NCBI GenBank assembly: GCA_029856125.1
Contig: JAHQWJ010000144.1
Span: 1 to 14,141, forward strand
Length of the DNA: 14,141 bases
Reading direction: 5' to 3'
Source: Promethearchaeia archaeon
Lineage (GTDB): Archaea > Asgardarchaeota > Lokiarchaeia > Sigyniarchaeales > SOKP01
The position numbers and the translations under genes were made by a program. How positions within the stretch are numbered: position 1 is the first letter of the stretch; every line of letters begins with the position of its first letter. The notes beneath the pieces were generated by a model, which saw only the letters and a program-made list of their open reading frames with translations, had not been told where the DNA came from and searched no databases. This document shows positions 2,380 through 2,892 of this stretch, in pieces.

Positions 2380-2469
2380 TGCCCTAAAATACCACTTTTA
2401 CCATAAAATTTTTAATCTACTTAATATTTTTTAAATGTATCATATAATATTAAAATTCTTGGTGTAATA

Positions 2470-2892
2470 ATTATTAGCATATATCTCGTTGAACCAGAGA
2501 AGCTTATTAAAACTTTAGCAGAAAAATTAAGAGAATTCCCCGAAATCAACCCACCCGAGGGATCCGAATTTTGGAAGACAGCATTTTTTAAGGAATTAGC
2601 TCCTATCGATCATGAGAATTTCTGGTATATTAGGTGTGCCTCACTTTTAAGAAAGATTAAGAAATTTGGTCCGATTGGGGTAAATAAACTCAGAAAATCC
2701 TACGGAGGAAAAAATAAAAAAGGTCCCGGTCGACACCATAGTGCTAAAGGGAGCGGAAAGATCATACGAGTCGCATTGCAACAGTTAGAGAAAGCTAATC
2801 TAATAATGAAGCAAGAAAGGGATGGTAAAATAACTACACCAGAAGGAACTAGCCTTCTAGAAAGAACCGCCTATGGGATTTTAAGAAAGTAA
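2470..2892 (+). CDS. rps19e: 30S ribosomal protein S19e (eS19); probable non-canonical ATT start (2470 or 2473)
   Basis: Manual translation (I)ISIYLVEPEKLIKTLAEKLREFPEINPPEGSEFWKTAFFKELAPIDHENFWYIRCASLLRKI...GPIGVNKLRKSYGG...KGSGKIIRVALQQLEKA...TPEGTSLLERTAYGILRK*. It has the eS19 WYxRxAS, YGG and IRxALQQLE motifs and the canonical position before PDCD5. Absent from the ORF track. Confidence 0.95.
   Translation: MISIYLVEPEKLIKTLAEKLREFPEINPPEGSEFWKTAFFKELAPIDHENFWYIRCASLLRKIKKFGPIGVNKLRKSYGGKNKKGPGRHHSAKGSGKIIRVALQQLEKANLIMKQERDGKITTPEGTSLLERTAYGILRK

Follow-up and report, generated by a model that had tools for sequence, protein, structure and literature searches.

An AUU start codon behind a Shine-Dalgarno site is predicted for the ribosomal protein eS19 gene of a Lokiarchaeia archaeon

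Archaeal start codons are given as AUG, GUG and UUG (PMC6237735, PMC7531240, PMC4705826). The aIF1 product is reported to control start-codon stringency (PMC4705826, PMC6237735), and the Sulfolobus factor rejects AUU in vitro (PMC4705826). An AUU start with autoregulation has been described for infC, the Escherichia coli gene for IF3 (PMC4705826, in its passage citing Butler 1987). Our search of the literature on non-canonical starts in Asgard archaea and Lokiarchaeia found one proposed ATT start, that of the Kariarchaeaceae tubulin AtubA, where it was called rare (PMC13394414), and no lineage-wide account. Shine-Dalgarno (SD) sites have also been called rare in Lokiarchaea (PMC12993045). Archaeal ribosomal leaders are known for S15, eL15 and L4 (PMC7247131), and eS19 is not named in the portion of that account drawn on here.

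We analyzed a window of 14,141 nucleotides (contig JAHQWJ010000144.1) from a 3.69-Mb Lokiarchaeia genome, a metagenome assembly that is 99% complete with 6% contamination. The window carries rps19e, the gene for ribosomal protein eS19, within a nep1-rpp21-yhbY / S19e-PDCD5-L39e-L31e cluster whose order is as published (PMC10833476). The features on which the start of rps19e depends are as follows:

2422-2424, forward strand: in-frame TAA that shuts the rps19e frame upstream
2461-2465, forward strand: SD core GGTG(T), starting at -12 from the predicted start
2473-2475, forward strand: ATT, predicted initiation codon (AUU) of rps19e
2473-2892, forward strand: rps19e coding sequence, 139 codons plus stop
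2776-2778, forward strand: TTG, the first canonical codon of rps19e and codon 102 from 2473

The original prediction, made from the letters of this DNA, had described a frame closed by the TAA and free of canonical starts for more than 100 codons, and this was borne out: the frame at 2425-2892 has no ATG, GTG or TTG before TTG 2776, where a gene caller limited to those three codons would have to begin. A full-length match to Pfam Ribosomal_S19e (PF01090) covers residues 4-139 counted from 2470 (profile positions 2-136/137, E = 1.4e-42), and the gene is the sole eS19 copy found in the genome, which leaves no second intact rps19e of the kind the original prediction had named as evidence against itself. 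Among the PDB matches listed there was no Asgard eS19.

Several other features of the window and its genome were noted. The adjoining PDCD5-like gene (2925-3263, forward strand) has a TTG or GTG start in 84 of 106 family loci, the eL31 gene (3446-3895, forward strand) encodes an N-terminal extension of about 70 residues that are chiefly Glu and Asp, and a tRNA-Gly(TCC) gene lies at 867-938 on the reverse strand. For a genome 99% complete, ARAGORN reported only 17 tRNAs; many may contain introns or be missing from the assembly. Another genome, G022 (loci L016 and L113), has two differing eS19 genes that both start with ATG, and with 6% contamination it probably represents mixed bins.

Alignment of rps19e 5' regions, the check that had been proposed for the AUU start, revealed that ATG and ATT alternate at one homologous codon. 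The family set comprised 110 distinct sequences, of which 94 have ATG, 15 ATT and 1 TTG at the codon equivalent to 2473, so that every non-canonical leader of the family has ATT there. The 16S rRNA 3' end of the genome reads GGATCACCTCCT, and the GGUG upstream of this codon pairs with its CACC (duplex of -5.4 kcal/mol, four base pairs only). The -12 position is also the modal one for GGTG among 391 unambiguous starts of the genome, which upholds the earlier reading of GGTGT as the SD site. Counted at a duplex of -3.5 kcal/mol or better, a GGTG SD site is present in 15/15 ATT leaders versus 2/94 ATG leaders. These sequences are related, and the co-change of SD and ATT comprises only three independent pairs on supported branches (sign test p = 0.5), so the coupling of the two is consistent but not statistically shown.

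Judged from sequence, rps19e displays all the testable features of SD-guided near-cognate initiation: its codon is near-cognate where orthologues have ATG, nothing canonical lies between the closing TAA and the N-terminus that eS19 proteins share, and the SD matches the anti-SD of the genome's 16S rRNA at the spacing typical of this genome. We conclude that rps19e very probably starts at AUU 2473 through SD-directed initiation, with a predicted N-terminus of M-S-I-Y-L-V. The 30S subunit would pair GGUG with the 16S CACC and thereby place AUU in the P site, where Met-tRNAi would accept the third-position mismatch; the Met so installed would then probably be removed ahead of Ser. The initiator tRNA is ordinary (A1-U72, three G-C pairs, anticodon CAT), and we saw neither an altered initiator tRNA nor an altered 16S P-site motif that might cause relaxed stringency, the 16S GGAAUC being ordinary as well. 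SD/anti-SD positioning, a canonical initiator tRNA and the presence of aIF1 are shared with SD-directed archaeal initiation under aIF1 proofreading; the difference is that here AUU would serve as the start of about 5% of genes, one for an essential ribosomal protein among them.

A second family, that of Promethearchaeum syntrophicum MK-D1, has ATT at the same position in seven genomes and ATA in one. Their SD sites form duplexes of -6.2 to -7.6 kcal/mol, and a stop shuts the frame 2-6 codons ahead of the start. This group includes MK-D1 itself, H. repetitus and Ca. Lokiarchaeum ossiferum (protein sequence). ATG, ATT and ATA alternate in this family at one codon behind the same leader, and the metagenomic relatives have ATG. 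In a third family, one genome (G026) has a CTG start for eS19. Overall, the eS19 start is weak in 24 of 133 sequences of the class and in none of the 30 sequences from other Asgard classes, all of which have a canonical start. Since upstream stops stand at codon -2 or -3 in L042 (an ATT-type locus of the window's own family), MK-D1, L. ossiferum and H. repetitus, no other start is left in these genes. ATT rather than ATG is almost certainly the eS19 start here and in two cultured relatives.

Public records of these genes disagree. The eS19 of MK-D1 is entered with 74 aa (QEE17460.1), 140 aa and 145 aa (WP_147664354.1, from ATT), and that of L. ossiferum with 114 aa (UYP44877.1) and 139 aa. RefSeq/PGAP already calls the homologous ATT for MK-D1 (WP_147664354.1) and H. 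repetitus (MCF2140134.1), the same start as inferred here; these calls are automatic and homology-based, and further entries for these genes are cut short. The expectation that standard callers would miss or shorten such a gene thus held for the 74-aa and 114-aa records but not for RefSeq/PGAP.

Near-cognate starts appear to extend well beyond eS19. In an all-codon model with 61 codons left free, the starts were apportioned to ATG (72.5%), TTG (10.0%), ATT (5.3%), GTG (3.1%), ATA (2.8%), ATC (0.9%), ACG (0.6%) and CTG (0.5%), with the equally AT-rich AAT, TAT and AAA near 0, as fitted on this genome alone. ATT is therefore the third-ranked start at about 5%, and ATT, ATA and ATC together (ATH) make up about 9%. 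The posterior of a near-cognate start exceeds 0.8 in 123 genes, and by this model roughly 150-250 genes of the genome would use an AUU-type start. In 65 genes retrieved by a screen on coding potential alone, the coding sequence extends for 20 codons or more before a canonical codon is reached. A near-cognate codon at SD spacing is present in 40 of them, versus 15.8 expected by permutation (p = 0.0005). In 9 of 10 genes tested, the N-terminal edge of a Pfam domain lies upstream of every canonical codon; these encode aIF1, eS28, a Rab-like GTPase, UvrB, RuBisCO, TatD, a ParA/CooC-type ATPase, ApbA and an aminotransferase. With near-cognate starts in well over a hundred genes, gene finders that accept ATG, GTG and TTG alone will truncate proteins. 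Samples of 400 kb were too noisy for a comparison between genomes (4.4 and 12.1% ATH in this genome, 5.9% in MK-D1 and 4.8% in G186). AtubA resembles these genes in being an Asgard gene with ATT behind a ribosome binding site, truncated in GenBank and inferred by homology; it differs in being one gene of another Asgard lineage, with no ATG/ATT alternation or genome-wide count.

A further gene of the window, dnaG, can be placed alongside rps19e:

11235-11237, reverse strand: ATT, predicted start of dnaG, behind GGAGTGA (model posterior 1.0)

Most of 29 family dnaG loci have an SD-like word with an ATT 5-9 nt after it, and by this comparison dnaG most likely starts at ATT 11235-11237 and not at GTG 11246.

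Some single loci are of note in their own right. A stand-alone BRCT-domain gene of the window (4023-4271, forward strand) has AGGTGA followed 6 nt on by ATA 4035, with TTG 4050 as the alternative. The eS28 gene (L117:7240-7494, reverse strand) has no canonical codon at all and shows an ATC or TTA start behind GGTGA, and the uS4 gene (L118:16862-17362) has an ATC start behind a strong SD. In G186, which belongs to another Asgard class, a uS13-like and an RNase HII-like gene (L248 and L245) appear best started at ATT behind GGTGAT, with a canonical codon a few codons upstream; these candidates hint that near-cognate starts may not be limited to Lokiarchaeia.

By analogy with infC, the original prediction had suggested that the AUU could tie eS19 output to start-codon stringency. 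Like infC, rps19e has AUU on an essential translation gene, and its initiation should hinge on a fidelity factor; unlike IF3, eS19 is not itself a fidelity factor, the codon is not kept family-wide, and AUU is common in this genome rather than exceptional. To our knowledge, eS19 has no role in start-codon selection. A closer analogue of infC is aIF1 (L116:6621-6959, G000:C84; L136-L185), whose frame has no canonical codon until codon 109. In 30/30 family loci, aIF1 has ATT (once ATC) behind an SD-like word, with an in-frame stop three or four codons upstream, a conservation of the weak start within the family that eS19 does not show. Elsewhere aIF1 has ATT or ATA in other genera and probably also in outer families; most MK-D1-family genomes have TTG or ATG. 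The protein here has the zinc knuckle and basic loop. These comparisons make aIF1 the best candidate for infC-like autoregulation.

A control specific to eS19, in which AUU was selected so that small-subunit supply answers to initiation stringency, possibly with the help of a leader RNA element, would be compatible with an SD-led AUU start, yet we regard it as unlikely. Speaking for it, near-cognate starts turn up at four or more points of the eS19 tree (this genus, the MK-D1 family, L048 and G026 with its CTG), and each of five neighbour genes lacks a canonical start in just 0-1 of 41-106 family loci, although these neighbours were picked as canonical in this genome. The MK-D1 family moreover has a covarying 6-bp GNRA hairpin that abuts the SD on its 5' side, with a TTGA word before it:

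L107:568-621 (reverse strand), L109:172-225, L028:1450-1503, L327, L406, L408 and L413-L415: GNRA hairpin of the Promethearchaeum/Lokiarchaeum/Harpocratesius family

Four of its six pairs show compensatory changes (0/500 shuffles), and its pattern has one or two matches per genome. It is a candidate leader element. As a covarying leader structure on a ribosomal protein gene, the hairpin is reminiscent of the S15, eL15 and L4 leaders, but it is confined to the MK-D1 family: the window's own rps19e leader has no structure (z = +1.37), and eS19 leaders found no match in Rfam. The hairpin also stands before ATG alleles, and a search for GCAA words in four 16S sequences gave no obvious mimic. Given a codon that is not conserved (plain ATG in 94 of 110 family sequences, canonical starts throughout the other Asgard classes), the abundance of ATH starts and an unstructured leader, an eS19-specific loop is unsupported in this genome, and the proposed tie to stringency is not upheld: some 150-250 genes would share the start, and the infC logic fits aIF1. 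Rather, rps19e would be one instance of a genome-wide tolerance of near-cognate codons where an SD is present, and its output should track aIF1 stringency like that of every AUU gene here. A wider scenario remains speculative and, in our view, doubtful: Lokiarchaeia would possess a group of SD-led AUU/AUA genes under the control of stringency, with aIF1 autoregulating through its own conserved AUU like IF3 and eS19 recruited repeatedly, with a dedicated hairpin in the MK-D1 family, so that small-subunit supply tracks fidelity.

The remaining alternatives concern where and how translation of rps19e begins. The original prediction favored AUU 2470, with 2473 second; the AUU start itself is strongly supported, but its position is better placed at 2473. 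A start at 2470, which would add one Ile, is in frame and receives a model posterior of 0.18 (versus 0.69 for 2473). However, the relatives' ATG aligns with 2473, and among ATT-type relatives the codon equivalent to 2470 is ATT, ATA, AAT or AAA while that equivalent to 2473 is fixed. L042 has an in-frame stop two codons ahead of its 2473-equivalent ATT, and from 2470 the GGTG would lie at -9, off the modal -12. These observations place the start at 2473, giving a protein that begins M-S-I-Y, and make 2470 highly unlikely.

We give similarly little credence to an mRNA that is leaderless or nearly so, beginning at or just before the AUU, with GGTG as a promoter-proximal DNA word and not an SD. 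A conserved TATA-like word does lie at 2438-2445, about 30 nt ahead of 2473; a second TATA-like run at 2428-2435 would, however, keep the SD inside the transcript. GGTG at -12 fits the anti-SD and the genome-wide SD spacing, and every confident ATH start in the genome is SD-led.

Scarcely plausible is a start supplied by an upstream AUG, whether by a bulge-helix-bulge (BHB) intron of 38 nt that joins ATG 2435 to codon 2, by frameshifting, or by reinitiation after an upstream ORF (uORF):

2435-2467, forward strand: out-of-frame uORF of 10 codons, judged incidental

An ATG lies 36-38 nt upstream in 14/14 ATT leaders of the genus, but ATG-start relatives have it too and L048 has ACG instead. Splicing was tested because dnaG genes of relatives carry intron-like inserts of 29-40 nt, the same size class: 18 of 30 family dnaG loci (L308-L325) are split by an insert at one site, with a central helix of 4 bp and, in those measured, a length of 29-40 nt; the window's dnaG has none. 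With these inserts as the positive control, a BHB intron of the cbf5/dnaG type failed the helix criteria at rps19e, where a join of ATG 2435 has at most three of four central-helix pairs and no G-C, whereas ten dnaG controls have 4/4 with two or three G-C. Of 17 leaders put through a relaxed scan, 10 gave no candidate and the others had no join in common. Frameshifting and reinitiation were rejected as well, since the end of the 2435 uORF falls in frame 0, 1 or 2, depending on the ATT-type relative, and its length varies from 2 to 13 codons. In the MK-D1 family an out-of-frame ATG at -7 occurs in six genomes; as a regulatory uORF it was rejected, being absent from L326, L413 and L029, which keep ATT or ATA.

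An artifact of sequencing or assembly, or a gene in decay whose role another copy has taken over, has next to no probability even for a metagenome assembly with 6% contamination: 13 other genomes of the genus carry the same ATT while 10-62 synonymous codons apart from this one, which excludes base-call error and chance, closed genomes of cultured species have the same ATT, rps19e is single-copy, and synonymous codon differences outnumber non-synonymous ones in every pair.

The eS19 gene of this family has two leader types, an SD-less leader with AUG or an SD with AUU. The 14 ATT rows of the genus are compatible with one clade (AU p = 0.49), and the inclusion of L048 in it is rejected (p = 0.0003). 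L048 (ATT, GGTGTG) and L058 (ATG, no SD) are 97.3% identical over 3.4 kb, yet leader and start codon lie in a block of about 25 nt (about 1470-1505) in which the two differ. The leader appears from these sequences to have been swapped as a unit, so that of L048 need not be an independent invention; short-patch recombination is possible. L006, L008, L011 and L041 resemble a swap in the opposite direction, to ATG. At codon 2, AGC stands in 13/13 tabulated ATT rows of the genus and TCN in 53/53 tabulated ATG rows. In the nearest ATG relatives the leader ends in ATTAGC immediately before ATG-TCN, and an in-frame ATT stands two codons upstream in 42 of 94 ATG leaders. The AUU allele of the genus probably arose by loss of ATG-TCN, with the leader's in-frame ATT-AGC taking over, a loss that would yield the present sequence with the same protein. 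Six of the loci compared (L036, L051, L070, L071, L082 and L087) are titled Nanopelagicaceae, Hodarchaeota or Hermodarchaeota; their eS19 falls inside this Lokiarchaeia family and they are probable mislabels.

An SD-led AUU on an essential, single-copy ribosomal protein gene would contradict the picture given in reviews, and would do so in a lineage close to eukaryotes. What is added here is an ATG/ATT allele series with its SD co-occurrence, a leader hairpin, and cultured test organisms, as the presence of the same ATT in MK-D1 and L. ossiferum makes the start testable. It would also follow that many public protein records of Lokiarchaeia, those of marker proteins among them, are cut short. 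Natural pairs of ATG and ATT alleles would be ready reporters for how SD strength and aIF1 set the stringency of start-codon selection in these archaea.
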